NCBI GenBank assembly: GCA_024137785.1
Contig: JAHRHZ010000048.1
Coordinates: forward strand, 12,318,256-12,382,255
Reading direction: 5' to 3'
DNA: 64,000 nucleotides
Source of the DNA: Ginglymostoma cirratum
Lineage: Eukaryota
Positions 13,376 through 62,909 of this stretch are shown here, in pieces (the stretch's first letter is position 1; each line of letters begins with the position of its first letter). Position numbers and translations under genes: made by a program. The notes beneath the pieces were generated by a model. The model had not been told where the DNA came from and searched no databases. It saw nothing but the letters and a program-made list of their open reading frames with translations.

Positions 13376-13531
13376 GATAGTAGGAACTGCAGATGCTGGA
13401 GAATCTGAGATAACAAGGTGTAGAGCTGGATGAACACAGCAGGCCAAGCAGCATCAGAGGAGCAGGAAAGCTTGACGTTTCGGGCCTAGAGCCTTCTTCA
13501 GAAATGGGCCATTTCTGAAGAAGGCTCTAAG
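13376..13531. mobile_element. Penelope-derived fold-back element with minimal hammerhead-like core
   Basis: Arm shared with 27847-28420, 51010-51135 and 62683-62896. The minus strand reads CTGAAGA-AGGCTCTAGGCCC-GAAACGTC. A 21-bp-arm palindrome spans 13487-13529. Confidence 0.75.
13472..13504 (-). ncRNA. Putative minimal type I hammerhead ribozyme
   Basis: TTT CTGAAGA AGGCTCTAGGCCC GAAACGTC AAG; conserved core boxes are intact, stem II is imperfect and helix I is only about 3 bp. Confidence 0.5.
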
Positions 13532-14083
13532 TCCATATATTTTATTGCCTTTTTCAGAAATTGGTGAGGAATCTGATCTGAGAACATATATGGAGATATG
13601 AGCGGTAAACAGGTGCAGAAAATATCCTCCACTAACAAAAAAAAACACTTTATCTTAAACCTAAAGGAGCAGTTACATAAATTAAATTGAGAATAACTTG
13701 CGTAAACTTATAAATGTTAACTCATTTCAATGCAACAAGTCAATCAACTGGAAGATAAATTTCTACTGACAAAACTTCCTAAAACAAGCATTACTGAACA
13801 TAAATATTAGATTGAGGTACTAATGCACATTGTGACTTGCTTATTTAGGTTGGCATGATTGTTGAGAAATGAACTTGAAAAATAATAATGCACAATTAAA
13901 TATTAATTAATTAATCAGGTCTCCTACTTGCTTAAAAGTACAGTGTTTTATGTAGGATTAATAACTCTACTTTTCCATTCAGTCATATATTTAATGCAGC
14001 AATGAGCCAATATAAAGCAATTTCTTTTCCACTATGAAATGAGCATTACAATTTAAATTTACATGTGAGACATTGGAAATCTC

Positions 14084-16560
14084 AGGACAGAACGTTACAG
14101 GGGCCTGAATGACATGTGCGATGGTAAAATTGGCGCAGAATTTCAGGAGAAGCCCTATTTCAACATTGGGAGCAGCATTTCTTTCTGCCTCTGTTAGGTT
14201 TCAGGCAGGTTTCACGCTAGACACAGTGCGTTTCCTTTAAAAGGGGATTATCGCTTGTTAAAAGCCTTAGTAACTGATTATCTCACCTCATTAATATTTT
14301 AACAAATGTGCCAAACAAACTCGACTTTGAGAATACTCGTCACAGAAGTTGGAGCAGGTACCTGGTAACTTCAGCTCCGAAGCTGGCTCAGGGAGTCTCC
14401 ACGCGCTCACGATGTAAAAGCATCTCAGGGCATCATCCGTAAGAACCAGCTGCATGCTGCCTTCATCCATATACATCTGAAATTTGCCAATGCCTTATGA
14501 TCTTTGTGGCACCTTTCTGTACCATTTGGAGGACTTTTAGGGTGTACAGACTTGTATTACATGAGGCACTGTCAACAAACATCAAGAGACTGCAGAGGGG
14601 ACGTTTTGCACAAGGACAGCCATCCAGCTCAGGGACTGAACTAGGTTCTATCTCAGGAGACCATGCTTGCTCTCTTAGTGCTTGGTCACCTAGCATCGAC
14701 CTGCACACCCACAGCATCCCTGCTTGTCTTCATCTGTTATCCCTCATAGTGTGTTAGTGTTTCACCTAAAACCTGAAGGTAACAGTTCTGCCATATTGTG
14801 GTATTCTGTTGAGCAGACACATCAACAGGCTGCCTCTCCGGAGGGGGAGGGAGAACATCTTGCCATACAGCACACCGAAACATCAATCTAACACCCACAG
14901 CTTGTTTCAGTTGCCTCTGTGTTAAGCACACTGCATATGTATTCAACCAAAAAGAGGATGGGGGTAGTCCTTAGTCCAGTCCACTGGGGGCCACTGTCAG
15001 CCAGGGTGTTCTGCTACTGTCTGTCACATGCACAGTCTGCACACAGTCTGGGGCTTGGCCATGTTCAGTTGTCCACTTGAGACACTCACTTTCACGGGAT
15101 ACATTTGATGACAGTACAGGGAATGGGCAGTGGTCAGTCCTGTTGTGCCAGCTCCAGTGGTCAGGGGTCTTGTTGGTTATGCCTAAGAACTGCTTGTCAA
15201 AATCAGTCAGAGGTCCATAGTGAATACAGGCCTGCAGGTCCATACATTGATCGTTAAGGAGGGTTCAAGAGGGGGACTGTACGAGCAATGGGGATGGGCT
15301 CACTGTCAAAATGGGAGAGGAAATCAAGGCTGCGTAAAGAAAGCAGAGATATTGAGATGGGAACAGGGATGGTGACTGAACTCAAGGTTTAAGAAGAGTA
15401 GACAAGACGGTATTGGAAGCATTGTCGGCTATGGAAGGGGAGTTATTGGCAGTGCCCACCATCATGGTCTCCTCAGGGGCAGTGTAGAGCACTTGGGTGG
15501 GCATCATTATAGTGTAATGCCAGGGATCAAAGAACAAGGAGGACATTTGGAGGAAAAGTTCAATGTGGTGGGTCTCCATGTGGTGGGGGGGCGTATTTGG
15601 AAATGAGCTGTCAGGGTAGCAACAAGTAAAAGGGGACATCAAGTCCCTTGGGGTGGTGGGGGGTTGGGGCTGGTGGGGAGTTGGGGATGGTGGGAGTTGG
15701 GGGTGGTGGGGAGTTAGGGTGGTGGGGAGTTGGGGGTGGTGGGAGTTGGGGGTGGTGGGGAGTNNNNNNNNNNTGGGGGTTGTGGAGAGTTGGGGATGGT
15801 GGGGAGTTGGGGGTGTTGGGAGTTGGGGGTGGGGGGGAGTTGGGGGTGGTGGGGAGCGGGGGGTGGTGGGAAGCTGGGGGCTATGGGAAGTTGGGAGTGG
15901 TGACTACCTGCCAACCAGATGGACCTCTGAGTAGATAGTTACCATGAGTGGTGATTCCAGCCAACATTTCTCATTCACTAAGTGCTAACCCCAAATGGAA
16001 AATGGCTGGGACAAAACCCACAGTGAACTGAGTCAATGCCAGTTTGATTGAAGAATGTGCAGGACCAATGTCTGCTGGACTCTAGATCATTGAAACGGCA
16101 TAGGCATGAAGCATGTGCTGTAAACTGCAGCTACTTTTAATTCCCAATAATTGACTTATCCATGTGTTATGCATGTGGAGGGAACATGGTTTGAGTTCAA
16201 ATATTGCTCATAGGTAATATACACTATTCCACTGGCACTCACAAATCTGACATTGGCACATCAGTGGAACAGAAATTAGCAGCAATGATATAAAAAGAGA
16301 CAAATGCTAGGTAAAAGCTTCCCATCTGTTAGAAACCCTCAGTGTTACTGTGGGTGGATGGGAGGATCGCTTCATCACCTGTCATGTATGTATTATGATG
16401 GGCTCTATTGAATCCATTGATGCATTCAATGGTTGGTGAGGGTCTGAGATAGGAAGGAGGTCAGGGCACAGCAGGTTCTCCCTTTTTAATGTCCTGTATT
16501 GCCTGTATTCATACTGAGAATGCCCTTTATTGTGTTGTGTGGCAACGAGGTCATGTGTTC
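14084..16560. mobile_element. Probable highly degraded PIF/Harbinger-family relic
   Basis: The left end (ggacagaacgttacagggcctgaatgacatg) resembles the terminus at 44485 and the reverse complement of 41245. The internal GC-richer sequence gives no clean motif. Confidence 0.35.
15648..15903 (+). repeat. G-rich minisatellite, about 16-17 bp unit (GGGGAGTTGGGGGTGGT), containing a 10-N gap
   Basis: Tandem repeat seen directly; N at 15764-15773. Confidence 0.95.
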
Positions 16561-16842
16561 TGAAGCCAGGGGTTGTGGACTCAGTGAAATGGACTATATT
16601 TGGAGTACTTGTTAAAGATACTTTCATTCTTATCCTGGACGTTCAGTAAGTTGACTACTTTTTAAAACTTTGTATTCCTATGTTAAACTTTTTTTTTACT
16701 CTTTCAATTCTGTAACAAATATTTAAGGTATCTGTACCTAAATACCCTATACCTAACATAGTGCCAAAGCGGCAACATTACAAACTTTCACTGCACTCAT
16801 TCCACTGCATTTGACAATAAAGGCTATCCTATTCTATTCTAC
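16560..16842 (+). mobile_element. Non-coding element with Rex1-like tail
   Basis: gtatctgtacctaaatacc...gccaaagcggcaacattacaaactttcactg...tgacaataaa(ctatt)n; matches the reverse complement of 41290-41400. Confidence 0.65.
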
Positions 16843-16844
16843 CA

Positions 16845-17985
16845 TTGTGTTAAATGGGACAGACGTTGAACAGATCAAGCAGCTCAAGACTGGGCATCCA
16901 TGAGACAGTGCAGCCTATCAACAGCAGCAGAATTGTAATCCAGCCCAATCTACAGCCTCATGGCCCATGATATTCCTCACTTAACCATTACCATCAAGCC
17001 AAGGGTTCAACCCTGGTTCAATGGAGAGTGCAGGACAGCATGCCAGGAGCAGCACCAGGCATACCCGAAGATGAGGTGTCAACCTGGTGAAGCTACCAAA
17101 CAGCCTGCATGTCAAACAACATAAACAGCAAGTGGTAGACAGAACTAAGTGATCCCACAATTAACAGATCAGATCTAAGATCTGCAGTCCTGCCACATCC
17201 AGTCACGAATGATAGTGGACAATTAAACAACCCATTGGAGAAGGACAATTCACAAATATCCCCATCCTCAGTGACAGAAGAGCTCAACGCATCATTGCAA
17301 AACATAAGGCTGAAGCATTCACAGCAATCTTCAGCCAGAAGTGCCAATTGAGTGTTCAATCATGCCCTCCTCCAGTGGACCCCACCATCACAGATACCAG
17401 TCTTCAGCCAAATCACTTCACTTCACACCATATCAAGGAACAGTCGGAGGCACTGGAAACTGCAAGGGTTGTTGGGCCTGACAACATTCTGGCGTTAATA
17501 CTGAAGACTTGTGCTCCAGAACTTGCCGTTCTCCTAGCCAAGCTCTCCTAGTACAGTTACAACACTAGCATCTGCACAACAATGTGGAAAATTGCCCAGG
17601 TATGGCCTGTACACAAGAAGCAGGACAAAATCCAACCCGGCCAATTACCGCCACAACAGTCTACTCGCGACCATCAGTAAAGTGATGGAATGGATCAACA
17701 GTGCTATCAAGCAGTACTTGCTCAGCAATAACCTGCTCAGTGACGCCCAGTTTGGGTTCTGCCAGGGCCATTCAGCTCCTGATCTCATTACAGCCTTGGT
17801 TCAAACATGGACAAAAGAGCTGAATTCCAGAGGTGAGGTGAGAGTGACAGCCCTTGACATCAATGCCGCATTTGACCAAGTGTGGCATCAAGGAGCCCGA
17901 GCAAAACTGGAATCAGTGGGTATCAGGAGCAAACTCTCCACTGGTTGTTGTCATATCTGGCATATCAGAGGATGGTTGTGATTGT
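16845..17985 (+). mobile_element. CR1/L2-clade LINE ORF2 (RT) fragment, pseudogenised
   Basis: GPDNI...LKTCAPELA...NPANYR..SLL..ISKVME...QFGF.QGHSAPDLITALVQTWTKELNSRGEVRVTALDI.AAFD.VWH in ORFs 17348-17551 and 17592-17981. Confidence 0.92.
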
Positions 17986-18759
17986 GTAAAATCTGCATTT
18001 AAACTCAGTCATCACATCAACAATGCTGAGTAAATAGCTAACTTCAAACATTTACCATTCCCCCTTTAGATTTGAAAAGTAGATATTAAAATTACATCCA
18101 TTTTCCAAAAATCCCTCTAGAAATTTAAAATATTTGTGGTTCTTTATGTTGTCTTTGGTCCTCAGTGAAAATACAGTGGCCTGTTTTCAGTTTCTACCTG
18201 CTGTGTAAAGTTTTCAGCACCCTGGTGCAATCTTGTGATGATGTCATGGAGCTGCAAGTAACTGGGTCTAAATAACACAATACAGGTGGAAAAAGTTTTA
18301 GAGAGAATGTAGCAGTAAATATGAAGAAGTATAAGTACATAGCAGTATTTCTAAAGATTTGTAGCTCGAATTGTGGATGATGCTGTTGGCTTGCCTGCCG
18401 AACTTGCTGGTTATTGTCACCATGCTAGGTATTATCATCCGTGCGGCCTCTGATGAAGCAATGTTGTTCTACTCCACTTGGGATTTATGTGATCTGGTCT
18501 GTAAATTGGGTTGTGTCATTTCTGGTTCTGTTCTGCATGGGTTTGTATATGAGGTCTAATTCTACATGTTTGTTGATTGCATTATGGGTTGAAAAGCAGG
18601 CCTCGAGGAATTCCCATGCATGTCTGTAGTTGGCTTGAGCTAGGATGGTCACTTTGTCCCAGTTAAATTGATGGCCTTCATTGTCCGAGTGCACTGAGAT
18701 AAGGGAAAGTTTGTCGTGTTGTTTTGCTGCTTCATCCACGGGTGCCCACTAGATAGACA

Positions 18760-19293
18760 ATGCCAAGAGGACACAGTATGCCCCAAGACACTGGCCATGC
18801 TATTCTATATCAAGAATATATCAGAACCAACAAGGAGACTCCTACGACCATTAGGAATCATGGTAGCACACAAATTCACAGCCTCACTACAACAAACACT
18901 CACAAGGACCAAGGACTCCATACCCAAGACATGCAGGACCAACATAATTACAAAATACCTTGTAATGACTGCAACAAGCATTACATCAGCCAGACCGGAA
19001 GGAAACTAGCCATCAGGATATACAAACACCAGCTAGCAGCAAAACGACATGACAACCTTTCCCTCATCTCAGTGCACTCAGACAATGAAGGCCGTCAATT
19101 TAACTGGGACAATGTGACCATCCCAGCTCAAGCCAACCACAGATACGCACAGGAATTCCTAAAGGCCTCGTTTTCAAACCATAATGCAATCGACAAATGT
19201 CTGGGATTAGAGCCCATATACAAACCCATGCAGAACAAAACCGGAAATGACACAACTCAATTTAACAGACTGGATCATACAAAATCTGAGTAG
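18760..19293 (+). pseudogene. Penelope GIY-YIG endonuclease remnant (frameshifted linker)
   Basis: Linker YIKNISEPTRRLLRPLGIMVAHK lies in one frame and the CxxC...YISQTGR endonuclease in another. Confidence 0.85.
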
Positions 19294-19317
19294 AATAACA
19301 TTACTTCAGCAGAGGCC

Positions 19318-19357
19318 GCACTGAAGATGGTACCTAGCATGGTGATGAAACGTCTGT
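19318..19357 (+). ncRNA. Putative minimal hammerhead ribozyme in the Penelope 3' region
   Basis: GCA CTGAAGA T GGTACC tagcat GGTGAT GAAACGTC TGT: core boxes present, helix I is GCA/TGT, ACGT palindrome in place of stem III; stem II is partly decayed. Confidence 0.6.
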
Positions 19358-20682
19358 ATGATAACCAGCCAGCTCAGAGAGCAAGCCAACAACCTCATAG
19401 CAGTCTTTAATTAATGTAACAGTAAAATTAGAGCCTTGTGTATCTCAGATTATCACATATACTTCCATTTAGTATTAATATGCAACAAAATAAATTCTTC
19501 AGAGTCCTAAGGCTTGAAGACAGTTCTTGACCTTTTCTTCTCCTTGATGAGGCTGCTTTGAACACAGACTCTGCGATGTGACATAGAAACCACATAACAC
19601 AAGAACAGCCACATAGGAATATTAAAAATAGATGCAGGTCATTCAGTCCCTCTAGGCCTGTTTACAACTCAACTCCATTGACCTGCTTTTTCACCCCATA
19701 CTTGTTGCGACCTTTAGCTCAAAGAAATATTTATCATTCTTGATTGCTCCAATTTATATAAAACCACAATCTTTTTAGGAGATATTTGCAAATTTCTACT
19801 GTGCTTTGAATGAAAAGTCTTTTTCATTTACTCTATCTAATTGATCTAATTGATTCTTCCTTCCAATATGCATCCAAATCTAAATCTCTGCAAAAGAAAG
19901 GTCAAACATAACAGACCCTTGTTGTGGATACTCTTCACTTTTAGCTAAAGTGAAGGAAATTGAATACTATGTGTTTGTGACAATGACCTTGTAAAAGATA
20001 TCTAATCCTTATTACCAGATACATCTTATTCACTAGTACCAGTCTACCAATTCATGGTTAACTAAGTGTCTTATGATTGTTGTTGTGACCATGGCTACAC
20101 CAGCTTTGAAGGTTATGATGAAACCAGCAGAACAAAACAATGAATTGAGCTATCTTACTTAGCAGGATCTCATCAGAGTTAGATGAAATGTGGCAATTTT
20201 AGAATCAACTGCACAATCTTAAGTCTTCAATCAAATTTATCTCAACACTAGCATGAAATCAATAGCAAGTCTACAGCATAATAACAGCAAGGAGGCAATA
20301 TTGTAGCAAAGATAAGGAATCTTAACTCTAGTTATAATTAATGGCAAAAGAAATTCAAGCTTTAAAACTAACAAGTGGCCAGGTATTTAACATTAACGTT
20401 ACTGCAGGATAATCATCCCTATCTTTTTTGCTCTATCTTACTGTCGGTCACTTGTGCAGATTTGTTCTAGGATTTATAACAGCACTAGCTGTATCATTTT
20501 ATCATAAGTACAGTACACTTTCCCCTAGATTCTATTTTTAGGTTGCATGGAGTCCCTAGGCAGGAAAAACAGCTGAATTCAACCCGATAGCTTTCTACCA
20601 TCACCTTTCCCAGAATATCCTACCAGTGACCTGAGACATAAAATATCACCAATAATATATGGGCATGTAAGACATTTGTTAG

Positions 20683-20805
20683 GAGGGCTCGTGCGGTGCA
20701 GTGATGAAATATCCCTACCACTGCAGCCAGAAGCCTGGGTTCTAATCCCACTTGGTCCAGAAGTGTGTAATAACTTCTCTGAACAGGTTGATTAGAAAAT
20801 ATCTA
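20683..20805 (+). mobile_element. Short tRNA-like SINE with 15-bp TSD
   Basis: Box A- and box B-like words (cggtgcagtgatg, gggttctaatccc); flanked by taagaca(t/c)ttgttag at 20668-20682 and 20806-20820. Confidence 0.85.
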
Positions 20806-21305: not shown

Positions 21306-21427
21306 CTATTTTGTCATTTGATCTATGACCTAAAAATTCAGCCAAGGCAACACTAGTTAGAAGGTACAACTTTGGCTGATACTCAGGACATTTAACATCC
21401 AAAGATGTACAGACATGCTCAATCAAT

Positions 21428-21789: not shown

Positions 21790-22123
21790 ATAATTGCTGA
21801 GTGACTTGCTGGCTTTTATTATATATACTGGTAGTTCAATAGCTCTGAGCTACACCACACAGTGGCAAGCTTCCAACACAGCCATTCTCCTTAAACATGA
21901 CTGGGGAGCCTTGCCAAAATTATGCAAGTGATCAACATGCTTGAAATTCAACCAGTATCAGGAAGCGCCAACAGCCTGAATTGCAACATCTAAAATTCTG
22001 TTTGTTAGTCTTTTATTAAATATACACAGAATGCTGCCTGTTATCACCATTAATAAATCTGCCTTCCTATTTAATTAAAATGTCTGACACACATAAATAA
22101 CTAACCCTTAATTTACCTAAATG

Positions 22124-22305
22124 TGAAGAAGAAGGGTTAAAAGAAAGGAAAATTTAATCAAAACAAGTAAAGTTTAACTCTTTATCTAAATTGACATTCA
22201 TCAATGGTTGCCTTAAAATCTTTATTCCCACATGTCAATTTAGATAAAGAGTTAAACTTTACTTGTTTTGATTAAATTTTCCTTTCTTTTAACCCTTCTT
22301 CTTCA
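22124..22305. repeat. Perfect inverted repeat, 74-bp arms, 34-bp spacer
   Basis: 22124-22197 is the exact reverse complement of 22232-22305 (checked base by base). Confidence 0.97.
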
Positions 22306-22616
22306 GTTACTTCTACTTTTCATGTACTTGCCCTCATGTAGGTGGTTTGGGTATCTCAGCTACTAGCTCATCTCCTTGAATAGTTGATATTACTATGCAG
22401 CTTAACAATCACACTATTTGTATATGAGTAATAACTAATAGAAGGTTTTGAATTGCTTTAAGGTGCATGGTGTGCAAAAATATCTTTTCAAATTCCAAAC
22501 AAATTCAATTTCATGCTAAAACCATTTTTGTCGTAGTGAGGGAGCTGATTGTGTCGAGGCGCTCCCATGTATAAGTACTTGTTTTATTAAATCTGTTAGT
22601 AACCCCTACTATACCA

Positions 22617-22740
22617 TAAACAAAAACAGAAATTGCTGGAAAAGTTCAGCAGGCCCAGCAGTATCTGTGGAGAGAAATCAGAGTTAATATTTCAGGTCCG
22701 GTGACCCTTCCTCAGAACTGATGGTAGCTAGGAAAAAGTT
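22617..22740 (-). mobile_element. Penelope-derived fragment with hammerhead-like core
   Basis: The minus strand reads AGTT CTGAGGA A GGGTC accg GACCT GAAATATT AACT; same family as 61292-61578. Confidence 0.7.
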
Positions 22741-24507
22741 ATTATACGATATTACCTCATTTTATCTTATTATACCATGGTAGACTGGACTATTATACTA
22801 AATGGAAAAGGAACAAGAACACCTCATTAAACTATTCTATTTGTAAATAGTCTTGTTTATATATAAATATAATTTAACGTAAGTATAGCTGTAGATCCAT
22901 GTATTGCAATGCATTTTCTTTTCTCCTTAAACTAAAGTGAATTTTAATTCTTTAAGTCAGTTTTAATTTGCCAAATGATGTGGTACTGATGCCAGTCACA
23001 TTTAGGTAAATTAAGGGTTAATGAAGAGAGCAGAAATGAGAATGAATTCTGTTTCCAAGTTCCTATTACTGTCTGTTAGTATTAGTGATTGTCACCCAAC
23101 GCCCATGTGCCAGAATAGAAGCCAGAAACGTCATTTTCCATGTGTAATTGAAGTGGCAATAAATGAAGTGGAAAGACACTGTCTAATCTGATCAGCGTGT
23201 AGAACGGTATTTTGACATGCAAATTATACCCTTCCTATATATTTTTTTTCAAATTACACTCTCTCCTGTCATGTTTTTGCTTCAGTTTAAATCACATCTT
23301 AATCTCCCATCTCTCAATAATTATGCCATCATTCTCCTGCTCCTAACACTGTATAATGGTATTTTGTATGATGTGCCATTCATTATTAACTAAAGTCTGT
23401 AAAGAAGTATTAGTTTGACTGTAGCTAAGTATGAGCTGTATGCAGATTTTGCAAAATGTTTAACTTGCATTCTTCAATAAATATTGCAGAACATGAAGCA
23501 TATTCTAACACATTAAGTAATATGATCACCAGACATCAGAAATCCTAAGTTGTAATGTCACCTCTATCAGACAAGATGAAATAACCTGACTTTGTTGCTT
23601 TACTCTGTGATGCAATGCCAATGAGACAAATCTTCTTCCAGAGGAAGTCAATAACTTTGTCAGCCACTGTAATGGTGGACCTTTATGCAAAGAACATTCT
23701 CCAGTGCCCTATAATAGATAAAGTATATGTGCTGTTGAATTTGCAAACCAACATAGACAGCAAAGAGCTGGCGCACACAGCAAACTCAACATTCTGTCTT
23801 ATCTGTTTAGAAAGTGATACAAGGGAGGGCCAAAAGGTTCTGAAAGCTTTTTTTTGAAAAGAAACAAAGGTGAAGGGAAAAGCTCTAGTCTGACTTTATT
23901 GTCATTCTGTCTACATGAATAAGGCATTAGGCAATGACGATCTGTTAGTCAGAATTTTAGAAAAGCAAGAAAAACTTGGCAAGTGTGTAGATGTAGCTTA
24001 GCAGACCCTAGAGTATTGAAATCAAACACTTACTTTGAGATTCTAATTACTATTGGTTTGTGGGTGCTTGTCGTTAATTTTTTTCCACAAAACTGTTTGG
24101 CCTGAGGCTCCAGCTCAATGGTGCTGAATCTGTTCAGTGGAATTTTCCTGAAACCAGAGCAAAAGATCACAAAATTATAAGTGATAAGTTATATTCAGCA
24201 CAAATTTAGTTTCCACAGTGTTCCAAATACAAAACTTGAAATAATGCTTACATTTCAAAATGTCTCTTTTAACTGAAGGTAAAGCAAAATGGTCTGATTG
24301 AGGAATGGTATGATTATGTTAATTCAGTCCCCAGATGAGCCCTTGATATTTGGTTGCCATGGGGAAAGAAGTATAGGTTGAAACCTCCTGAAAATCAAGT
24401 ATTAGGCATCATAACTTGCCACAAAAGAAGGGTAGCTGCCTTTTTTTCCTAGACACAGACTCTTATCTGCAGAGGGACCAAAACAACTGCTGCTGGGAGA
24501 AGTAGAA

Positions 24508-27282: not shown

Positions 27283-27846
27283 ACATCAATGGAGCTGAGG
27301 TTGAAAGGGCAGAAAGCATTAAGCTCCTAAGAACGACTCTAACCAAAAACCTGTCTTGGACTTCCCACGTAGATACAATGCTCAGGAGAGCACAACAACA
27401 CCTCTTTTTCCTCAGGTGGCGCAGGAAATTTGACATGTCCGTAAGGTCCCTCACCAACTTCTACAGATGCACCATCGAAAGCATACTGTCTGGGTGCATA
27501 ATGGCCTGGTATAGCTACTGCTCTGCCCAGGACCATCAGAAACTACAGAAGGTGGTGTGCACAGCCCAGACCATCACGGAAGCTGACCTTCCATCCATGG
27601 ACTCTATTTACATGACTTATTGCATGGAAATGCTGCCAACATTATCAAAGACACATCCCACCCCTGTAATGCTGTCCTGCAACCTCTTCCATCAGGCAGA
27701 AGATACAGAAGCATGAACACACAGACTAGCAGGTTCAGGAACAGCTTCTTCCCGGACACTATTAGAATGGTCTCTCTAACATTAAATAATGCTGATCTTG
27801 CTTTGCACATGCCCTTTGCGACATAAGCTGTATGCCTCTGTCGAGG

Positions 27847-28420
27847 ATAAAAGGTACTGCAGATGCTGGAGAATCCGAGATAACAAGGTATGGGGCTGAA
27901 TGAACACAGCAGGCCAAGCAGCATCATAGGAGCAGGAAAGCTTGACGTTTCGGGCCTAGACCNNNNNNNNNNNNNNNNNNNNNNNNNNNNNNNNNNNNNN
28001 NNNNNNNNNNNNNNNNNNNNNNNNNNNNNNNNNNNNNNNNNNNNNNNNNNNNNNNNNNNNNNNNNNNNNNNNNNNNNNNNNNNNNNNNNNNNNNNNNNNN
28101 NNNNNNNNNNNNNNNNNNNNNNNNNNNNNNNNNNNNNNNNNNNNNNNNNNNNNNNNNNNNNNNNNNNNNNNNNNNNNNNNNNNNNNNNNNNNNNNNNNNN
28201 NNNNNNNNNNNNNNNNNNNNNNNNNNNNNNNNNNNNNNNNNNNNNNNNNNNNNNNNNNNNNNNNNNNNNNNNNNNNNNNNNNNNNNNNNNNNNNNNNNNN
28301 NNNNNNNNNNNNNNNNNNNNNNNNNNNNNNNNNNNNNNNNNNNNNNNNNNNNNNNNNNNNNNCTGCTCCTATGATGCTGCTTGGCCTGCTGTGTTCATCC
28401 AGCTCCACACCTTGTTATCT
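27847..28420. mobile_element. Penelope-derived fold-back element spanning the 400-N gap
   Basis: The arms on either side of the gap are reverse complements; flanked by direct repeat tgcctctgt(c/t)gagg at 27833-27846 and 28421-28434. Confidence 0.85.
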
Positions 28421-30060: not shown

Positions 30061-30065
30061 AATTC

Positions 30066-33349: not shown

Positions 33350-33590
33350 ATATCCAGGTTCTTATTCTCCCAGATCGAAACCAAATGCTGACAATTCCTG
33401 ACTTGAAAGTCCAAGCTCCAGCTTTCTGCTTTCTCTTCCGGGTGTCTATCACTGACAGCAGTCCTGAAGATCTCAGGGTCCAGTCCAGGAGCAGCGACTG
33501 CTTGCATCTCCTTTCCACTAAGGTTGGCATCGGGTATCCACCAGCCTCACCACACCATCATGAAACGTTTCCATCTCACTTACAATGCAA
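33350..33590 (+). mobile_element. Harbinger-family internal fragment
   Basis: 33495-33587 aligns by eye to 45803-45897 (aggttggcat...accagcctcaccaca.catca). Confidence 0.5.
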
Positions 33591-33715
33591 GCAAAATACT
33601 GTGTATGCTTGAAATCACAAAACAAAAACAGAGAATGCTGGAGAAACTCTGGTAGTGTCTGCAGAGAGGGAAACAGAGTTAATGTTTTGCGTCCAACATG
33701 ACTCTTCTGCAGAAG
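33588..33715 (-). mobile_element. Penelope-derived terminal fragment
   Basis: aaaacagagaatgctggagaaactc...aacagagttaatgttttg...gactcttctgcagaa (decayed hammerhead region). Confidence 0.6.
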
Positions 33716-41284: not shown

Positions 41285-41962
41285 ATATAGAAGAAGAATT
41301 TATTGCCACATGCACCTGAATGAGTGCAGTGCAGAAAGGTTTGTAATGTCGCCACTTTGGTGCCAGCTTAGGTACAGGATACCTAGGACAGATACTTAAG
41401 TGTTTGTTACAGAATTGAAAGAGTGAAAAAAATAGTCTAGCATGGGAATACAAAGATTTTAAAACTACTCAAATTACTCAAAGTCCAGAATAAGAATAAA
41501 AGTTTTCTTGACAAAAGTACTCAAATTACAATCCTTTTCACTGAGGCCGTGCCTGCCAGGCTTCAGAACTCAAGAATTTGCTGCCTCCTCACGCTGGCCT
41601 CCAGCCCAGGACCCACCTCCAGGACTCATCTTCAGGCCGGCCTGGTCTCGAACTGCCTCCTGACGCTGGCCTCCAGCCTAGGACCCACCTCCAGGACTGA
41701 TCTCCATGCTGACCTGGTCTCGAACTGCCTCCTCATGCTGGCCTCCAGCCCAGGGCCCACTTCCAGGGTTCACCTCCTGCGCCTGCCTGGTCTCGGACCC
41801 GCCTCCATTCTCCATTCTCTCCAGGTATGTTTAAGAAGTCAAAAGTTAAAAGATTGGGGTGGGCGTTGGGGGGTGGAGAAAAACTGCAGAAACGAGAGTG
41901 AAAAAGAAAGAAAATGGAAAAGGAACTAACGAAACAGAGGAGCTCCGGCTGGACCATCCTAC
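41285..41962 (-). mobile_element. Rex1-tail non-coding element with an internal 72-bp tandem array
   Basis: The reverse-strand tail reads catgtggcaataaa(ttc)n; 72-bp units start at 41581, 41653 and 41725. Confidence 0.7.
41581..41797 (+). repeat. Three 72-73 bp tandem repeats
   Basis: ctgcctcct.a.gctggcctccagcc.agg.ccac.tccagg...cctggtctcg.a occurs three times. Confidence 0.95.
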
Positions 41963-48030: not shown

Positions 48031-51009
48031 TAAATGCTGACATCATGAGGCCCTGTTCTGTTTGAGGGTGACCAGGCACCTGTTGTACAACAGCCCTCTG
48101 AGCGCCAGAGCTCTAGGTCTTTCTTCTTCAGCCAACTGTGGAGATGTGGTGCTGATCTGCTCACTGAAATATGCTCCTGAGTGTAATTGCGCTGAGATAC
48201 CCATCAAGGTGCAAATATTTGAACTGGTGGAGGGTGCAGAAGACATCCTTGCTGACACATTTTCTGAGAGGTCTGTGTCTTCTTCCTCAGAGGTGGAGAA
48301 GGAAGTGTTGCTTGCATTGGCTGCTCTTATGAGGATGAAGACTGTGTGGATCCCACTAGGTGCTGCAGGACAAAAGAAAGGGAATGAGTAGCATATTCGG
48401 GGTAGAAACTTGGACATGTTACAAATGCATTCACAGTTGTGATAAAGGGAGTGTGGTGAAACAGCTTACTAAGAATCTTACTTGGTTGGCAGAACGTGGA
48501 GGTCTCAGCATTCCCACATATGCAGCCACAATTCTCTCCTGTGAACTCAAGGATGCTCTCCTCGTATGAGGTGGTAAGTTGAAGATCAGCCAGTCCACAA
48601 TCTGTCTTGGCACCCCATGTTTTATCGTGGGTCCATTTTCTCCTGCAGTGAGACAATGGGAGGCATTTAGTGAAATGAACATTAACAGCTGTACGGATGG
48701 ATGAAAGATATGGTGTCCTGGCTGAGTGGGTAGGAAGCACACAAGGCAGGAAGAGTTAACAGTTTAGGGGAATGGGGTGGATGAGAACCATTAAGGTGAA
48801 ATACTGGATGCAATAGTGGAAGTGGTAGACCAGAGCTTTGATGGGAATTTTGGGCTGGGGCTGTGTGAGACAGCAGAAAGACGATGGTGGCACTTATTCT
48901 GTGGAGTGCAGAGGTCATTACCCTTCTTACACTGATGAGCAATCCTCTGGATTGTGAAAACTGCATTGGTATAGTTGGCAACTTCAGACTAGGCTGGCTG
49001 GCTCTGGTGGCATGGCGTTGATTGTCAATTGGCAGGAAGAAGGATACCCTTCATTCCAAAACTCCATATGCCAGAAACCTCCAAGTCCCTGTCAACCAAT
49101 CAGGGTGCCAGCTTGGTTCTGTTGGCCATCTGCAAGGTGATTCTTCCTTTATTGCAACTTCTACCATAACTGAGTGCATGATAACACTAGTGTGGCACTG
49201 TAGAGGTGTGGCGCATACATAATGAGGTGAGCTGCAGAGAAATGTGTGAGAGAACTTGTTTGAGCTAATGGAGAGAAACCCCTATGGTACTCTCTGAAAT
49301 TGACTCTAAGTCTACTTATAAAATTTTTAGTCTATAGTCTTTGCAAAATACTTCACAACTAGTACGTGTTTACCACAGCTACATCTTTCTTGCTATCCAA
49401 CCCTTTTAATATCTCAGGACACTTCAAGCATAGTCAGCAGATTAACAGAAGGTAAGAAATTGTTTAATGTAGGTCAAAGTTCAAACAACTATATTGAATC
49501 AGAAGTATCATGTTTCTAAATGGTTCAGAGAATGTACTGGAGGAGATAAAGCATACTGCAAACCATACATGATGGTATCACCTTCATGAAATATTATAAC
49601 TGGGAACAGACGGGAGCATGACTGACATCACTGGAATAATTCTACACAATACAGTTTGCACTGAAAATTAATGCTTTATTTTGTTCTCGCAAGTGAAAAT
49701 AAATTCCTTACATAGGAGAAGTTGTGGGATATAATCGAAATCCTATTTGTAGGGCAGAACATAACTTGATTGTGAACTAGAAAGACAACAGTGTATGACA
49801 TAAAAAAATCACAACCAGAGAGCTGATAGTTACCTTTCATGCGTAACTTTTGTTAAGAATTCATTTGTGCATTTTGCTTTGCTTTTGCAAAGCTCATGTT
49901 TCCTTCCTTTAAAGCTAAGTGTTACAGATGACAAAACATACCAGAGTAGAGATTCCAGTTAATTTGATCTGATTAATAGACATATTGTGGACATAACAGA
50001 TTGTAAGAACGGGTAGAGATATGTTTCACTTGGATTGTAGCCCATTTAGTGCCCCATCCAATTTTCTGTTTTGTAGTTGTATTAATGCCTGACATTCTGC
50101 CCATTTGGAGATAATGGAATTAAAGTTAGCTGCCAGGGACATCATTTCGGCACCCAAGCAGTTTCCTTTCATTTGTGCAAGTATAAACTCACATTATGTC
50201 AGTGTCCAGGTCTGCTAAGGTATTCTTACAGAACTAGAAGAGGGAGATGAAATTGAAGAGGGAGAAAGACAGAGGTAGACAGACAGTGAGAAAGAAATTG
50301 AAGAAATCTCTGTAAATACTAAGCTCAGTCCAGTATAAGGCATGACTTACTTGTTTGAAACAAAAGGTTTATCTTCCTTTTTTTGGTAGGTATTAATACA
50401 TCATCATAGTGCATATCTACAATCTGTTATTAATAAGTTTGTATAAAATATGTTTTGAACAGAGAAAACCCCACCCCACAATAGTTCTTCTGTCAATTAA
50501 GAGCAATGCACAGAAGGTACCACGGCATAGTATTTTAAAAAGTCTCATCAACTCCTTTGGTTATCATAAAATACCATCTTCAGCTCCTCTGCTTATCTTC
50601 ATTGTTAACAGCTTGTAACCCGTTCTCCTCAGTTCTGTCCCACCATATCACCTAAAAGTGCAATTGAACATTGAAGAGTCTGATCATTTGGGAACAAGTT
50701 TCTCATTTGTCCAGCCATTAGCTGTCAAGATTACAGATAACTAAGGATATCAGTCACCCATGTAAACTTTCACAATGTTTTGATAGGATGAGGCAAGCCT
50801 GAAAATACAAAGTCAAGAGCCAAGATTCACAGCATTGAGGTGTGTTATACCTTTACATATTTTCAGACAATTAAAATTGACAATGTCCAATAGGTCAGAA
50901 TTGGAAGAGCACAGATATCTCAGATGGTCCTAGGCATTTTGGCAATCATGGAGAAAGGAAGGAGTGGGACAATAGAGGGACTCAGCAGCAAGGATCTGAT
51001 TATCGGGGC

Positions 51010-51135
51010 TAGTAAGAACTGCTGATGCTGGAGTTAGAGATAACACAGTGTGGAGCTGGAGGAACACAGCAGGCCAGGCAGCATCAGAGGAGCAGGGAAG
51101 TTGAGGTTTCGGTCGGGACCCTTCATTGGAAAATG
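51010..51135 (-). mobile_element. Penelope-derived terminal arm (decayed hammerhead)
   Basis: Same arm as 13376-13531 and 62683-62896. Confidence 0.75.
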
Positions 51136-51139
51136 GCTT

Positions 51140-51737
51140 GACCCTTGTTTCAAACTATTAAGTATATCTCCCTGATTGGTCAGAACTACAGAAAGTTCCA
51201 GAAAACCATCTAAAATGTATAAAAACAGAGTACACCTGCAGACCTGTCTCTTGGAACTGCACTTGGAATCGCCTGAGGCTTTTTGAGGAGACCAGCATGG
51301 CAAGAAGCAGAGACCAGCTGACCATCCAGAGAGACGGTCGGAAATCACACAACACCAGATTATAGTCCAACAGGTTTATTTTAACTGGTGTTGTATGATT
51401 TCTGACCATGTCCAGCCCAGTCCAACACCAGCACCTCCACATCATGGCATCCAGAGGGTGAGGGAGAAAGCAGCTTTGCAGGCCCAGAGACAGAGCCACA
51501 GAGAGAGCGACTGTGTAAATTTACAAGGGATTTGGGAAATATTGTAACTGTAAGCGACCAAATAGGATTAGGGATAGTATGTTCAGTGTTAAAAATTATT
51601 GTAATTTTGTTCCTAATAAAGTGGGACTGTTTTGCTTTGGTACCATCTTATGTCCATATTGATTTGACCACTTTGGAATTGTTGGGACATCTGGGCAAAT
51701 TCATTCATAGCATTCTGGTCGGAGTTGTCTGCAACTT
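51140..51737 (+). mobile_element. Solo LTR-like element
   Basis: ATTGG box, GTATAAAA, and downstream AATAAA in LTR order; boundaries uncertain. Confidence 0.45.
51332..51447. mobile_element. Collapsed fold-back mini element with 9-bp flanking direct repeat
   Basis: Arms gaaatcacacaacaccag / ctggtgttgtatgatttc; catccagag at 51323-51331 and 51448-51456. Confidence 0.7.
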
Positions 51738-54213: not shown

Positions 54214-54277
54214 CAGGCTTGATTTTCAAATTGACTTTTGATTTAAGAATGGACTAAAAGATGCCGTTAGAAGAAAA

Positions 54278-56636: not shown

Positions 56637-56646
56637 TTGAGACTTG

Positions 56647-56992
56647 GAGCAGCACGGTGGTTCAGTGGTTAGCCTTGCTGCTTCACAGTGTCAGGGAACA
56701 GGGTTTGCGTCCAGCCTTGGGCGACAGTATGTGTGGAGCTTGCACATTCTCCCCATGTCTGTGTGGGTTTCATCTGAGTGTTCCGGTTTCCTCCCACAGT
56801 CATAGATGTGCAGGTAAGGTTGTTTGGTCATGCTAAGGTGTCCAGGATGTGCAGGCTAGGTGGATTAGGCATGGGAAATGCAGATTTATAGGGAGAGGGT
56901 AGGGGGATGAGTCGGTGTGGGATAATCTTCAGAGGGTTGGCGTGTACTTGTTGGGCCAAATGACCTGTTTCCAGGAATTCAATGATTTCCAT
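56647..56992 (+). mobile_element. HE1-type tRNA SINE
   Basis: Typical head, body and tail. Confidence 0.9.
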
Positions 56993-58419: not shown

Positions 58420-60340
58420 ATATAATGAGATGATGATGATGTAACTAATGAAATGACTCTAATGTCAGTGGGAGAGAAGACGCCAAGGTTGGGAAGAGAG
58501 AGGTCATAGGCACGACACAGGAAATCTGTATTTAATCATCTACAATGCACAGAGAGTGTTAATAAAAGAGTTTTACTGTAGGTTCAGAGCGGAAGAGCCT
58601 TACTTTGAGACAAGGAAAAAACAGCCTCAGGGACAGTGTATGTGCAGACACCCACAGCCTAGTCACACTCCAGATCAATATCTCAATGTGCAGTAGTAAG
58701 TATTGGTTTAAAGCAGAAGAAAAGCATGGCAGCAGCTGGGAAAAATACATTCCCTGATAAAATATGAAGTTCAAACAGAATCCGAGGGACGCAGTTGGAA
58801 GGGAAAGTTCCAAAGTCAGTAGGGGACCCCAGAAGACTTCAAAGGTATAGCTGAGAAAGAAGCAGGAAGAGTCCATGACCTTGGAAGACTTCGAGGCAAA
58901 AGCTGGAAAAGGAGAAGACTCTAAAGGGAGACCAAAGAACCTCAGATGGCTGTGAATACTGGCCAACAAAGCCAGACGAAAGATGTGGAGGAGAACCTCA
59001 GAAGATTTTGAAGTCGAACTAAGAACAAAAGCACAGAATTTGAACACATCGACAGTAAGAAGGGAAAGCTCAAGTACTCACCAAGTTCAGTCAGGTGGAT
59101 TTGTCCACAGGGATGGTGGGTACAGTCAAGATGTCTGGAATCTGAAATCATAGAAGGTCCACAATGAGGCCAGAAGTGAGAGATCTGGAAGTGGCAGTGT
59201 AAGTACAATAAAATAACTCAGGTTTGCATGCAAAGGAGAAGCACCATCTAGTCAGTACATGTTTTTATTCCATAGGTCCAATTGTGGTTGGTATTCTATT
59301 AGGGCAAAACATGCAGGAAGTACGACAGAATATGATGCATTAGTTAAAACATTTGTCTGCACTTTATTCCCAAAAGAAATTTAGTGATAGAGCAGAGGAC
59401 ATGTAATCAACAATCTTAATGTTTGAAAAAATCAATAGAGCTCCTTTTAATGGATTGATTTTGTCAAGCGAGGTGTCTCAGGTACGGAGCTTTGAAAAAT
59501 AAATTAACTAGAGACTGTGTTGTAGTCAGTCTGAGAGATAAGAAGTTGCCAGACTTTCTTCAATTCAAGGAGAATTTGATGTTGGAACAGGGAAACCAAT
59601 TCACTACACAGGCAGAAATCAGGGCCTAAAAATCAGATAGAACTGCAAGAAAATATCAGAGATTTTTCTGACACTGCCAGATGCTCAGGTTAACATTGTC
59701 ACCCTCCTAAATGCCTTCCAAAGTGTGATCTTCAACCATATTAGGATGTACAAGGCATGGCTCCAAACAGAATCGATATATGTCCAGCTGGCAGAACTGA
59801 CTGCTAGAAGTGTGGCCAGGTGGGACAACGTTTTAAAATATTGCAAGTTAACAGCACCTCCATCGCCTTGAAAAACAAAGAAGTGGTCTTGCAAAAGGAA
59901 AATTTTCAGAGAAAAGAAAGCCATAAAACAAGGAGAAAATTTCAAGAAGTTAAATACACAGAACATGTTTCTAGGTGAGTTCAAAGAGAGTCAAAACAGA
60001 TTCTGGATATTCAATTGCATAACATTTGGTGCAGAATCTAAACTCGACACAGGAACAGTTGTTAATACTTAAAGATTGCTTGCCATAGTTTAACTGATGT
60101 GAGTCAGATGAGCTAATATGAAACTCTAAAGTCCGTGAGGCAAAGATCTTCAGGCACATGGACAAATCACCATGAAACTTAGTCACGGGGGACAAAATAT
60201 CAGTGAAACAGTACATATGCTGAAGGATCAGAATACCTCCAAAGTTGGGCAGAAATTTAGATAAGTCTCTTACAGAGAGTAGATACAATAATTCAGAAGG
60301 AAGACAGGAAAGAATTTCCAAAGCTATTTAAAGGCTGAGG
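58420..60340 (+). mobile_element. Degenerate Gypsy LTR retrotransposon (gag to protease region)
   Basis: HFIPKRNLVIE (about 59360), YGALKNKLTRDCVVVSLRDKKLPDFLQ (about 59483), and the zinc-knuckle-like CPAGRTDC*KCGQVG (about 59781). The upstream part looks LTR/leader-like. Confidence 0.7.
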
Positions 60341-60399
60341 TGAATTGAAGCAAATGCATCATAATTACTCTGAAGACAATGAAAAAACAAAGACTTTCT

Positions 60400-60522
60400 T
60401 CTTCAGAAAAAGAAGAGTCATACTGGCCTTGAAACATTACCTCTGTTTCCCTCTGTAGACCTGTTGAATTTCTCAAGCTTTTTCTGTGTTTGTTTCAGAT
60501 TTCCAGCATCTGCAGTATTTTG
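60400..60522 (+). mobile_element. Penelope-derived terminal fragment
   Basis: gaagagtcatactggccttgaaacattacctctg...cagatttccagcatctgcagtattttg. Confidence 0.6.
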
Positions 60523-60818
60523 GATTGATTATTTTGAAAGATGTACAGGATTGCATTTAATCATGCCAAATGTAGGCCATTCTCAGTCATGTGCCTACAG
60601 AGCCAATGATTTCATTAAGATTTTTTGGGAAAGGCTAGCAATAAACTTGTTTAAAAGGATGCAGTTAGGCTTAGCTGACCATTAGTTAAGATGGATTGAA
60701 GTGCAAAACTTCATTCAACCTCAGCTGACTCAGTAAGTTGTAAAAGGATTTTTTGCAGTGCACAGTTTTCCTAAGAATTAATCTTGGACAATGGACCTCA
60801 ATTTCTGTGCAGTGATTG

Positions 60819-61043
60819 TGACAAAGTCAGCCAAGTCTATCTCATAGAATATGAGTTCTTTGATTGGGGCTGTTAATCTGGTTCAATCAGGGAGCCCTGG
60901 CTGACAGATATAAACAGGAGTGTCAGAGGTTCTGTTCACTCTGAGAGCTGGATCTGAGGGAGCTGGATCAATGTCAAGTACAATACATGCATAAATAAAG
61001 GGTGACTTGGTGATGGGATACCAACCTCTGTAGAGTTATTGTA
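60819..61043 (+). mobile_element. Short solo LTR-like element
   Basis: TG start, gattgg/caatc boxes, GATATAAA and AATAAA in LTR order. Confidence 0.55.
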
Positions 61044-61291
61044 TTGTGCATAAGGATTTCAAAAAGCTTGTTATGGAGGCAAGTGTTCAATTCTGCATTC
61101 CGTCCTCAGTCAAATGGAGAGACAGAATGGGCAAACAGGCCTGAGACAAAGAATCCAGACAGGGAATCAACTCTACCCAGTTACAGATCAACACTGTTAA
61201 ATAATGATTACTGTCCATAAGTGGGGAGAATTTGAGCCCTGTCACTCCAAATTTCTGGTGACTAAACAAGGGCTCAAGGTAAGAATTCTGC

Positions 61292-61578
61292 ATCAAAAAT
61301 AGAAATTGCTGGAAAAGCTCAGCAGGTCTGGCAGCATCTGTGGAGAGAAATTCTGAGGAAAGGTCACTCAGTGTTAACGTTTCAGGGCAGAACAGGTTCT
61401 GAGGAAGGGTCAAGTGACCTGAAACGTTAACTCTGAGTGATCTTTCCTCCGAGCCTGTTCTGCCCTGAAAAGTTAACTCTGATTTCTCTCCACAATTGCT
61501 GCCAGACCTGCTGAGTTTTTCCAGCAATTTCTATTTTTGTCTCTGATTTACAGCGTCTGCATTTGTTTTGGCTTTTAT
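61292..61578. mobile_element. Penelope-derived multi-inverted-repeat element with hammerhead-like core and 12-14 bp flanking direct repeat
   Basis: Outer arms at 61294-61351 and 61482-61539, with interleaved inner inverted repeats; taagaattctgc at 61280-61291 and 61579-61590. Confidence 0.85.
61395..61432 (+). ncRNA. Putative minimal type I hammerhead ribozyme
   Basis: GGTT CTGAGGA A GGGTCA ag TGACCT GAAACGTT AACT: 4-bp helix I, 6-bp stem II, ACGT palindrome. Confidence 0.6.
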
Positions 61579-61989
61579 TAAGAATTCTGCGTGTTCGTAT
61601 CCAGTATAATGTCCTAGGAAGCTGTCTGGGATAGGTAATAGCACTCTTGACATCTTATTCTCGGGGAGACAAGCACTGTTTACGACTTAATGGGCCGAAT
61701 GGACTATTACCATCCTGTAACATTTTATGATTCAATATTTCCATGAGCCTCACGCATTACCTAGTCACAGAAACATCTTCCAAACATTCGTCAGCTAAGG
61801 TCAGATATTGATGACAGTGACTGCACTTGACATTTTGAAAAATGTATTAAGGATAGAAGTGTCAGCCTGAATAATCAATACATTTACTGTTGAAATATGG
61901 AAAAAATATTGTATACAACCGTTGACTCCTTAAAGACCAAGCTGGCAACTGGTTAGACAGAAGGAAAGAGAAAAACGTTTTACACAACC

Positions 61990-62140
61990 ACTGGATGCCT
62001 TGAAGTACTTTACAGACAGCAATTGTTTGCAGCGAAAGTACTTCTGAAATCCAATCGCTGTTGTAAAATAGGAACTTAGGTGCTAATTAATGGACAACAA
62101 ATTCCCACAAACAGCAACGAGTTAATGCCCAAATAATTTG
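61990..62140 (-). mobile_element. Deu-domain SINE 3' fragment
   Basis: gaagtactttacag...aagtacttctgaa...gctgttgtaa...caaattcccacaaacagcaa. Confidence 0.5.
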
Positions 62141-62682
62141 TCTCTATTTTATAGTGTTATATTATGACCTAGTAGCTTCAATTGTTTATAAGGTAATGTC
62201 CAGTTAGTGTTAATACCATACAAGTCAAGTTCTTAACAGGAACCTGGCTGGATAGATTTTTTTTTACCCTGAGGTTATCTTTTACAAAAACATAAGCACG
62301 CAATATTTCACTCTTTTTGTTTCAACAATAAATCAAAAGAGAAGTTTACTTTATGAAAACAGAATTGAAGATAAACAAGGGGGAAAGTTCTACTTCTTTG
62401 AAACATAAATTCGAAGACTCTTAAACGCACAGCAGACCTAATGCATGTGATTCCAGGTGCACCCCTAGTCAGGCTGAGCCTAGCTCCTTTCCAAGGGAGA
62501 GAAGTTTTTCTGTTTTGCTTTGCTATTTTGTTGGGCTTGAATTTCAACTCATTTGCTGGAATTGAAGACAACACTTTCTTAGTTGTAATTATTATCATTA
62601 TTACCTTCCTGACTTGGTTTCTTTCCATTGTTATACTATACCTGACACAGCTCACGTTTTTATTAAACTTTGGTCTCATTGC

Positions 62683-62896
62683 TAAGTGAGGAGCTGGAGG
62701 AACACAGCAAGCCAGGCAGCATCAGAGGAGCAGGCAAGCTGACGTTTCGGGTCAGGATCCTTCTACAGAAAATGAAGAACAGTCCCGACCCGAAACGCCA
62801 ACATTCCTGCTCCTCTGATGCTGCCTGGCCTGCTGTTTTCCTCCAGCTCCTCACTGAGTTATCTCAGACTCCAGCATTGGCATTTCTTACTATCTC
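62683..62896. mobile_element. Penelope-derived fold-back element with 10-bp flanking direct repeat
   Basis: Two inverted arms meeting at decayed hammerhead cores; tggtctcatt at 62671-62680 and 62897-62906. Confidence 0.85.
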
Positions 62897-62909
62897 TGGT
62901 CTCATTACC

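Follow-up and report, generated by a model that had tools for sequence, protein, structure and literature searches.

Short fold-back insertions at a Ginglymostoma cirratum locus are probably dead-on-arrival ends of Penelope-like elements

Short insertions with inverted arms and hammerhead-like motifs recur along a 64,000-nt stretch of the Ginglymostoma cirratum genome (contig JAHRHZ010000048.1; hereafter the window), which raises the question of whether they form a system of their own or are pieces of ordinary retroelements. The initial annotation had favored a recurring system of non-coding, ribozyme-tipped Penelope derivatives in at least three distinct families, here called A, B and C. All ten insertions that it named were found where it had placed them, and two old family B copies were absent from its list. 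The inventory is as follows (TSD, target-site duplication).

4833 to 4997, no single strand: old two-armed family B insertion, absent from the initial list, no TSD left.
6453 to 6540, plus strand: old single family B arm without ribozyme, absent from the initial list.
13374 to 13508, minus strand: long family A arm of insertion 13374-13529, putative minimal hammerhead and 100 nt to the distal 3' end.
13509 to 13529, plus strand: inverted 21-nt stub equal to the ribozyme 5' half, partner of the preceding arm.
18351 to 18731, minus strand: probable Poseidon-type element, inverted 5'-truncated arm with a 26-28 nt tail.
18732 to 19395, plus strand: direct arm of the same element, TSD 18338/19396.
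22614 to 22740, minus strand: single family B arm with the short 3' end, core boxes kept, helix III altered.
27847 to 28420, no single strand: two-armed family A insertion, long left and short right, TSD 27833/28421 (14 bp, 1 mismatch).
33585 to 33714, minus strand: single long family B arm whose 5' end lies 2 nt ahead of a decayed core.
51008 to 51136, minus strand: single long family A arm whose 5' end lies 6 nt ahead of a decayed core.
51332 to 51447, no single strand: two-armed family C insertion, short left and long right, TSD 51323/51448 (9 bp).
60390 to 60535, no single strand: family B inverted stub (about 60390-60408) and long arm, decayed, TSD not clear.
61292 to 61578, no single strand: complex family B insertion, TSD 61280/61579 (12 bp).
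62681 to 62896, no single strand: two-armed family A insertion, short left and long right, TSD 62671/62897 (10 bp).

The fully sequenced non-coding insertions measured 116, 156, 216 and 287 bp, in line with the 115-290 bp given initially. The 27847 insertion contains a 400-N gap at 27963-28362, so its arms were read without the hairpin centre. Paired arms lie head-to-head, with one arm about 26-45 nt longer than the other. One long arm with a shorter inverted copy, as claimed for the complete insertions, was found at 18351, 27847, 51332, 61292, 62681 and the unlisted 4833-4997, but not in the single arms at 22614, 33585, 51008 and the unlisted 6453; 13374 and 60390 carry a long arm and only a 10-26 nt inverted stub, and this second arm does not start at the short start site. 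Long and short ends were paired in all six two-armed copies whose ends both align. The 61292 insertion is more elaborate, with a short left arm, four short ribozyme-zone pieces of alternating orientation and a long right arm. Hairpin centres vary among copies, which ruled out a single hairpin master.

We then matched the family A arm to contigs of related genomes in four runs (87,798, 55,128, 138,899 and 1,223 contigs; depth over the arm was not taken as copy number). In the first three, the commonest loose ends into unrelated flanks lay at 13373 and 13406-13409, with at least 912 contigs at the former and at least 492+695+430 at the latter in run X1, placing the two family A 3' ends of related genomes 33-36 nt apart. 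Loose ends at 13470-13473 were considered as cleavage-site junctions and rejected: at that point the window copy carries one additional base, and the family sequence runs on into the loose letters. Since 202 X1 contigs extend beyond 13508 with common sequence (agreement 0.58; 30 letters visible), family A is longer than the ribozyme-bounded piece. Families A and B share with EN+ Penelope-like element (PLE) insertions two 3' ends, a tail on one arm only, an inverted 5'-truncated copy, head-to-head arms and a variable TSD.

All five direct repeats reported initially are present at the positions listed above, and a sixth, of 15 bp with one mismatch (13359-13373 / 13530-13544), bounds 13374-13529. 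Six of 12 insertions scored 10-14 matching bases in a TSD test, whereas the best of 1,474 random position pairs scored 9, a comparison made partly circular by boundaries placed by eye with 4 nt of slack. The remaining six showed no convincing TSD, the best scoring 8 at 22610/22743 (null fraction 0.012). TSD length varies from 9 to 15 bp; together with the two discrete 3' ends and the 5' truncation, this supports the proposed movement through RNA.

The copy at 18351-19395 has the same architecture around coding sequence. Its direct arm holds the frameshifted end of a GIY-YIG endonuclease (about 18761-19290) and a hammerhead motif (19321-19354) whose core is overlapped by an ATG at 19327; the ribozyme of the inverted arm is decayed and partly deleted. 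The endonuclease end is present and the RT truncated away. In a full HMMER search the endonuclease fragment matched 744 proteins at E up to 0.001 (best 1e-30); a word-indexed search with it gave no match, and Pfam alone matched none of three window fragments of this copy. Of 13 protein matches scanned, seven carried RVT_1, six GIY-YIG and four both, with the domains called at E below 0.01. A CxxC linker is absent from the 120 residues preceding the endonuclease in five of five long relatives, and from the window translation; the missing Zn-finger-like RT-endonuclease linker is what separates Penelope/Poseidon from Neptune and Nematis. Translated from the core ATG, the arm weakly resembles the N-terminus of the 832-aa protein P0046 (10/22 identical, pairwise E 0.011). 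Judged by its sequence, this copy is a Poseidon-type EN+ PLE whose arm starts the ORF, with a minimal hammerhead that overlaps the ORF start and has an intact core at 19321.

Its layout is that of Poseidon PAc from Anolis carolinensis: parts of the report by Frangieh et al. (2024, PMC11167929) describe an ORF whose start falls within the hammerhead, the ATG following C3 and G8, and reverse transcription of an uncut RNA substrate from two internal start sites, which produces the tail. The corresponding sites lie about 41-44 and 70 nt past the cut in the 18351 copy and 64-67 and 100 nt past it in family A, in both cases nearer the ribozyme than in PAc. Unlike in PAc, the A and B arms may be non-coding.

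The families themselves are not all distinct. A and B are homologous, with a local alignment score of 67 (at most 35 in 500 shuffles), while every other comparison among A, B, C and the coding element gives 14-20. Within the arm, indels of 1 and 2 bases distinguish the A and B subfamilies, which is unlike a coding N-terminus. Two protein searches of longer proteins with translated family A arms found no PLE ORF, which weighs little either way; a match to one such arm, P0005, was rejected as a chimaeric gene model that includes an unrelated LINE domain. When the window was scanned with a profile built from 11 PLE proteins, no further coding PLE turned up (iE 0.35 for the best other match). Scans with the A/B arm pattern gave 0 and 0 matches in viral contigs, 0 in prokaryote genomes and 0 and 1 in metagenome contigs, the lone match being a chance hit in GC-rich unrelated DNA. 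Our literature search, with Repbase and Dfam outside its scope, found no paper cataloguing these shark families, and the available portion of the PMC4209133 supplement mentions no shark, skate, Callorhinchus or Leucoraja.

The CUGAnGA...GAAAC core ascribed to all the non-coding families was confirmed in A and B but not in C. Neither box occurs on either strand of the family C insertion at 51332, a single copy that may stop short of the core and that does show tail asymmetry and a TSD. In A and B, the motifs support a minimal type I hammerhead form, intact at 13501 and 61399 and decayed elsewhere. The 13374 arm places C3 at 13501, with a predicted cut after 13474; the best-preserved hammerhead (61399-61428, plus strand) lies inside the 61292 insertion. 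Only three of 13 audited arms keep an intact core (13501 minus, 61399 plus, 19321 plus), and the arm at 22715 minus keeps the core with an altered helix III. A strict hammerhead descriptor found 2 motifs in the window; 100 shuffles gave 0 motifs in 94 cases and 1 in 6. No hammerhead family was among the 10 Rfam matches in the window at E up to 10. None of five motifs folded better as a monomer than its shuffles (z -0.37 to 1.43), a result that is expected because the motifs are minimal and that is silent on activity. The insertions cannot be called ribozyme-tipped, as the ribozyme sits 65-105 nt inside the 3' end. Published minimal hammerheads likewise have an extra base before helix II, a palindrome as helix III and a short helix I, and likewise occur as many single motifs and opposite-strand pairs; thousands of the former, and pairs 100-700 bp apart, have been ascribed to truncated PLEs (PMC4209133). 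Separately, the best Rfam matches in the window were microRNA models, below threshold.

Inversion had also been thought to focus on the ribozyme. Some focusing is indeed seen in A and B, but the junctions are not at the cleavage site. Counting longest arms that pass this site, six of eight A/B insertions end 2-7 nt upstream of the core (-7/-6, -6, -3, -2, -2 and -3), and no A/B arm in the window extends more than about 25 nt upstream, the distance seen in the 22614 arm, whose TSD is not clear. Under a smooth-truncation model this cluster of 5' ends has probability 0.0009 at the fitted mean; it rises to 0.09 and 0.55 at mean runs of 10 and 5 nt, both of which misfit the observed distance of 30-34 nt. 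At 62681 the junction falls within the core and both cores are mutated, and the coding copy has its junctions 286 and 589 nt upstream of its ribozyme. A splice acceptor (pyrimidine run and CAG, 22718-22735) was considered for the family B ends 2 nt before the core and dropped because the copies lack common upstream exon sequence and the family A ends misfit. We found no paper mapping PLE junctions against the ribozyme.

Altogether, the insertions are probably dead-on-arrival 3' ends of EN+ PLEs. One Poseidon-type family would have contributed, along with two or more further lineages, C being separate from the related A and B. The Penelope-like origin proposed initially is supported, whereas the notion of a distinct system is not: the same architecture is published for ordinary PLE insertions and is displayed by the coding copy in the window. 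Those parts of Arkhipova et al. (2013, PMC3846280) that treat PLE insertions describe an inverted pLTR, a 31-bp tail on one inverted repeat, 8-10 bp TSDs and junction palindromes, with head-to-head as the commonest form; Craig et al. (2021, PMC8557442), in the part concerned, give a 30-40 bp tail at one end and an inverted 5'-truncated copy as general features. Most copies here, at 116-287 bp, are much shorter than these canonical insertions, and their TSDs can be as long as 15 bp. The architecture is mostly known.

In such a process, the GIY-YIG endonuclease would nick both target strands 9-15 bp apart, and each nick would prime reverse transcription on uncut element RNA. Synthesis would begin downstream of the hammerhead, at either of two internal sites separated by about 30-40 nt. 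The two cDNAs would usually end early and be joined head-to-head, leaving a TSD-flanked hairpin that has the element 3' ends on the outside and a tail on just one arm. What is seen here are the arms in head-to-head arrangement, the pair of 3' ends, the TSDs, a ribozyme region kept uncut and the coding origin of the 18351 copy; two-strand nicking, two internal start sites and an uncut RNA substrate are reported in vitro for the anole element in the relevant part of PMC11167929. A, B and C would presumably have been made by the same route. Single arms without TSD may be hairpins that later lost one arm, and the A/B pile-up 2-7 nt before the core may mark a preferred stop or fold-back point. Several results weigh against this account: the searches above yielded no coding partner for A, B or C, A/B arms do not run far upstream of the core as smooth truncation would lead one to expect, the subfamilies carry indels within the arm, and the stubs at 13374 and 60390 start elsewhere than at the short start site.

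A, B and C could possibly be separate non-autonomous families. In the fuller form of this idea, which corresponds to the initial interpretation, A and B (perhaps C) are PLE derivatives copied in trans by a PLE enzyme, from short RNAs starting just upstream of the hammerhead, with the fold-back formed at each insertion. The six longest arms stopping before the core, the frame-breaking indels between A/B subfamilies and the very numerous copies in related genomes all speak for it, and non-autonomous PLE partners are described in Chlamydomonas (in part of PMC8557442) and proposed for retrozymes (in part of 10.64898/2026.07.22.740005). Yet the 202 X1 contigs run on upstream of 13508 with common sequence, 5' ends and hairpin centres differ among copies, which indicates no single short master, and the coding element in the window yields the same architecture; we regard this reading as credible but unlikely.

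Monomeric remnants of non-LTR retrozymes, whose tandem hammerhead repeats give circular RNA, are far less likely. According to parts of Cervera and de la Pena (2020, PMC7229834) and Li et al. (2026, 10.64898/2026.07.22.740005), retrozymes are also non-coding, carry a type I hammerhead, are kin to PLE terminal repeats, have longer TSDs and occur in the one chondrichthyan genome sampled. Besides the shared motif, head-to-tail joints (13472 to 13373) were found in 9 X1, 1 X11 and 7 X12 contigs, but partial tandems are normal for PLEs too. Retrozymes are head-to-tail repeats with a ribozyme per unit, whereas the copies here are head-to-head or single, their motifs are minimal rather than canonical, and five tandem-repeat scan rows held no array of these families in the window. 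MITEs of a DNA transposon, with the arms as terminal inverted repeats, would likewise be short, non-coding, fold-back and flanked by direct repeats. This last reading is already contradicted and has next to no probability left: one outer end exceeds the other by about 26-45 nt, the TSDs, at 9-15 bp, have no fixed length, the inner ends are variable, and a GIY-YIG endonuclease fragment is enclosed in the same layout.

Read as truncated PLE ends, the insertions are ordinary, in shark-type genomes full of such ends, and of practical use to recognize, as annotation can readily mistake such hairpins for MITEs or microRNA precursors. The feature that retains interest is how the junctions cluster along the front edge of the ribozyme. 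If this clustering is true genome-wide, it would bear on PLE second-strand synthesis, on inversion and on the purpose of the hammerhead, matters that the cited papers call unresolved. On a rather improbable reading, A and B are either non-autonomous short RNAs that depend on PLEs or ends of PLEs, present in very high copy, and the point at which both cDNAs stop and join is set by the 5' foot of the uncut hammerhead. The ribozyme would then act in integration and not in cutting, for example through a palindromic helix III that pairs two template RNAs for a dimeric enzyme. With their tens of thousands of junctions, shark genomes would offer a direct test of what the PLE hammerhead does.

All ten insertions claimed by the initial annotation, and its five direct repeats, were found in the sequence, which has 41% GC, is repeat-rich and contains two N runs. 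Window self-comparison added two old copies of family B.

18351-19395: coding copy, a Poseidon-type Penelope-like element (PLE)
18732-19395 (+): its direct arm, the end of a GIY-YIG endonuclease, frameshifted
13374, 27847, 51008, 62681 (starts): family A, non-coding hairpin insertions
22614, 33585, 60390, 61292 (starts): family B, non-coding hairpin insertions
4833-4997 and 6453-6540: the two added family B copies
51332 (start): family C, a non-coding hairpin insertion

A sixth direct repeat, of 15 bp, flanks 13374-13529. Target-site duplication (TSD) matches of 10-14 bases occurred in 6 of 12 insertions, whereas none of 1,474 random pairs exceeded 9, a somewhat generous control because insertion boundaries were set by eye; the other six insertions tested lacked a convincing TSD. 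Two contigs of related genomes, one each from sets X1 and X17, carry both flanks of 13374-13529 and are too short to hold the insertion, suggesting an empty site, as read from contig tables in which the joint itself is not among the rows listed.

All two-armed copies are arranged head-to-head, with element 3' ends outward and the ribozyme zone toward the centre, and arm lengths differ by about 26-45 nt in all six copies whose outer ends could both be aligned (18351, 27847, 51332, 61292, 62681 and 4833). We compared 13310-13800 with four contig sets, in which at least 87,798, 55,128, 138,899 and 1,223 contigs aligned to the arm of family A. In the first three sets, among the ends listed, contigs broke off into unrelated A-rich flanking sequence most strongly at 13373 and 13406-13409, showing that the 3' ends of family A fall at two discrete sites separated by 33-36 nt. 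A hexamer that occurs twice at a spacing of 33 nt occupies both sites (13374-13379 and 13407-13412) and may be a start signal for reverse transcription. Tail-to-tail joints of a long with a short 3' end (13369-13411) were seen in at least 147 X1, 25 X11 and 44 X12 contigs, with none in X17 among the joints listed and no long-long or short-short joint among the 15 of 64 joint rows listed; they could reflect insertion beside or into the element's own tail.

Families A and B, initially annotated as separate, are homologous over the entire arm (alignment score 67, versus at most 35 in 500 shuffles); neither family C nor the coding element resembles them (scores 14-20). Three lineages, not four, are thus present in the window. 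Hammerhead cores had been proposed for all the non-coding families; this held for A and B; the single window copy of C, which may be truncated short of it, has no core. Shark repeats of type C may have a hammerhead further upstream. A, B and the coding copy share the minimal form of the motif described in PMC4209133. Most copies are decayed: of 13 arms audited, three retain the GAAACGUH ending along with both core boxes, and a fourth has the boxes but a changed helix III. A strict descriptor found two motifs in the window versus 0 or 1 in 100 shuffles, and the window gave no hammerhead match to Rfam. Monomer folding of all five motifs, putative ribozymes, was no better than that of shuffles.

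An isolated hammerhead-like motif at 48932-48963 (+) combines the two core boxes with a 7-bp helix II and matches no repeat family in the window. A pyrimidine run followed by CAG (22718-22735, -) directly precedes the ribozyme of the 22614 copy; downstream of the core, family B arms carry a second such run and CAG, followed at once by a conserved ATG. Both sites look like splice acceptors.

The full protein search returned 744 relatives of the coding copy, and the two best-matching ones examined are gene models from sharks, in line with a shark-type source. Among 13 relatives scanned, RVT_1 was found in seven and GIY-YIG in six (both in four), no family in three and an unrelated family in one. 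The CxxC linker is missing in all five long relatives, which points to a place for the coding copy in the Penelope/Poseidon clade. An ATG at 19327 lies across part of the ribozyme core, an arrangement shared with the anole element (PMC11167929), and the 22 residues after the ATG weakly match (10/22) the N-terminus of the full-length 832-aa relative P0046.

The proposed focusing of junctions at the ribozyme did not extend to this copy, in which they are found 589 and 286 nt upstream of the core; its inversion is thus unconnected with the ribozyme. The proposal gained support in A and B, at the ribozyme's 5' edge. In these families, eight insertions have a longest arm that extends beyond the predicted cleavage site, ending 34, 33, 30, 31, 31, 32, about 54 and 6 nt upstream of it (6453, which stops before the site, and 27847, in a gap, are omitted; the values for 22614 and 4833 are uncertain), and in 6/8 this arm ends 2-7 nt before C3, the first core base. 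Under constant-rate truncation, the probability of six of eight falling in any 5-nt window was 0.0009 for the fitted mean (31 nt) and 0.007, 0.09 and 0.55 for means of 20, 10 and 5 nt; when the cluster had to lie beyond 20 nt, it was at most 0.00002 at all means. At the fitted mean it was 0.02 with a 10-nt window, and 0.01-0.07 with the five two-armed copies only. Few insertions enter these figures, and little upstream sequence serves as reference (for A, 7 nt in the window; for B, a single unverified copy). In the 61292 copy, four additional short segments derive from the ribozyme zone. No arm in the window starts exactly at the cleavage site, the closest beginning 4-8 nt downstream, which argues that templates were mostly uncut, in agreement with the portion of PMC11167929 available.

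Other repeats near 22102-23020 are unrelated to the Penelope families: a perfect 74-nt inverted repeat (22124-22197/22232-22305, within 22102-22305) and a perfect 25-nt inverted pair 869 nt apart (22102-22305 and 22996-23020 region), both AT-rich, reflect either a recent local inversion or an artefact of assembly. The window also holds a G-rich 17/33-bp minisatellite with a 10-N gap (15650-15902) and three copies of a 72-bp tandem repeat (41581-41795).

Altogether, the pattern is real and probably represents the known insertion signature of PLEs. In the parts available, PMC3846280 describes inverted terminal repeats, one with a 31-bp tail, 8-10 bp TSDs and junction palindromes, with head-to-head as the most common arrangement, and PMC8557442 and PMC8969392 treat such traits as general PLE features. 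Single minimal hammerheads in thousands and opposite-strand pairs have been attributed to truncated PLEs (PMC4209133), and the accessible part of 10.1101/443036 reports PLE expansion in a shark genome. That A and B are instead non-autonomous families is unlikely, and we keep this reading because no coding partner was seen for them. At least 202 X1 contigs continue past 13508 with common sequence, so at least part of family A reaches upstream of the ribozyme. Type A may be preceded by an endonuclease-like coding end. The 27847 insertion lies where a LINE-like coding fragment ends (27285-27784 and 28421 onward), matching P0005, a gene-model chimaera with an unrelated LINE domain. Retrozymes form tandem repeats (PMC7229834; 10.64898/2026.07.22.740005); the window has no array of that kind.

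Our literature search, with repeat databases and bioRxiv supplements outside it, turned up nothing published on these shark families or on where junctions fall relative to the ribozyme, and the part of PMC6431247 available adds nothing further on junctions; the families may already be catalogued. The only point that we found to be absent from print is the clustering of junctions at the 5' edge of the ribozyme.
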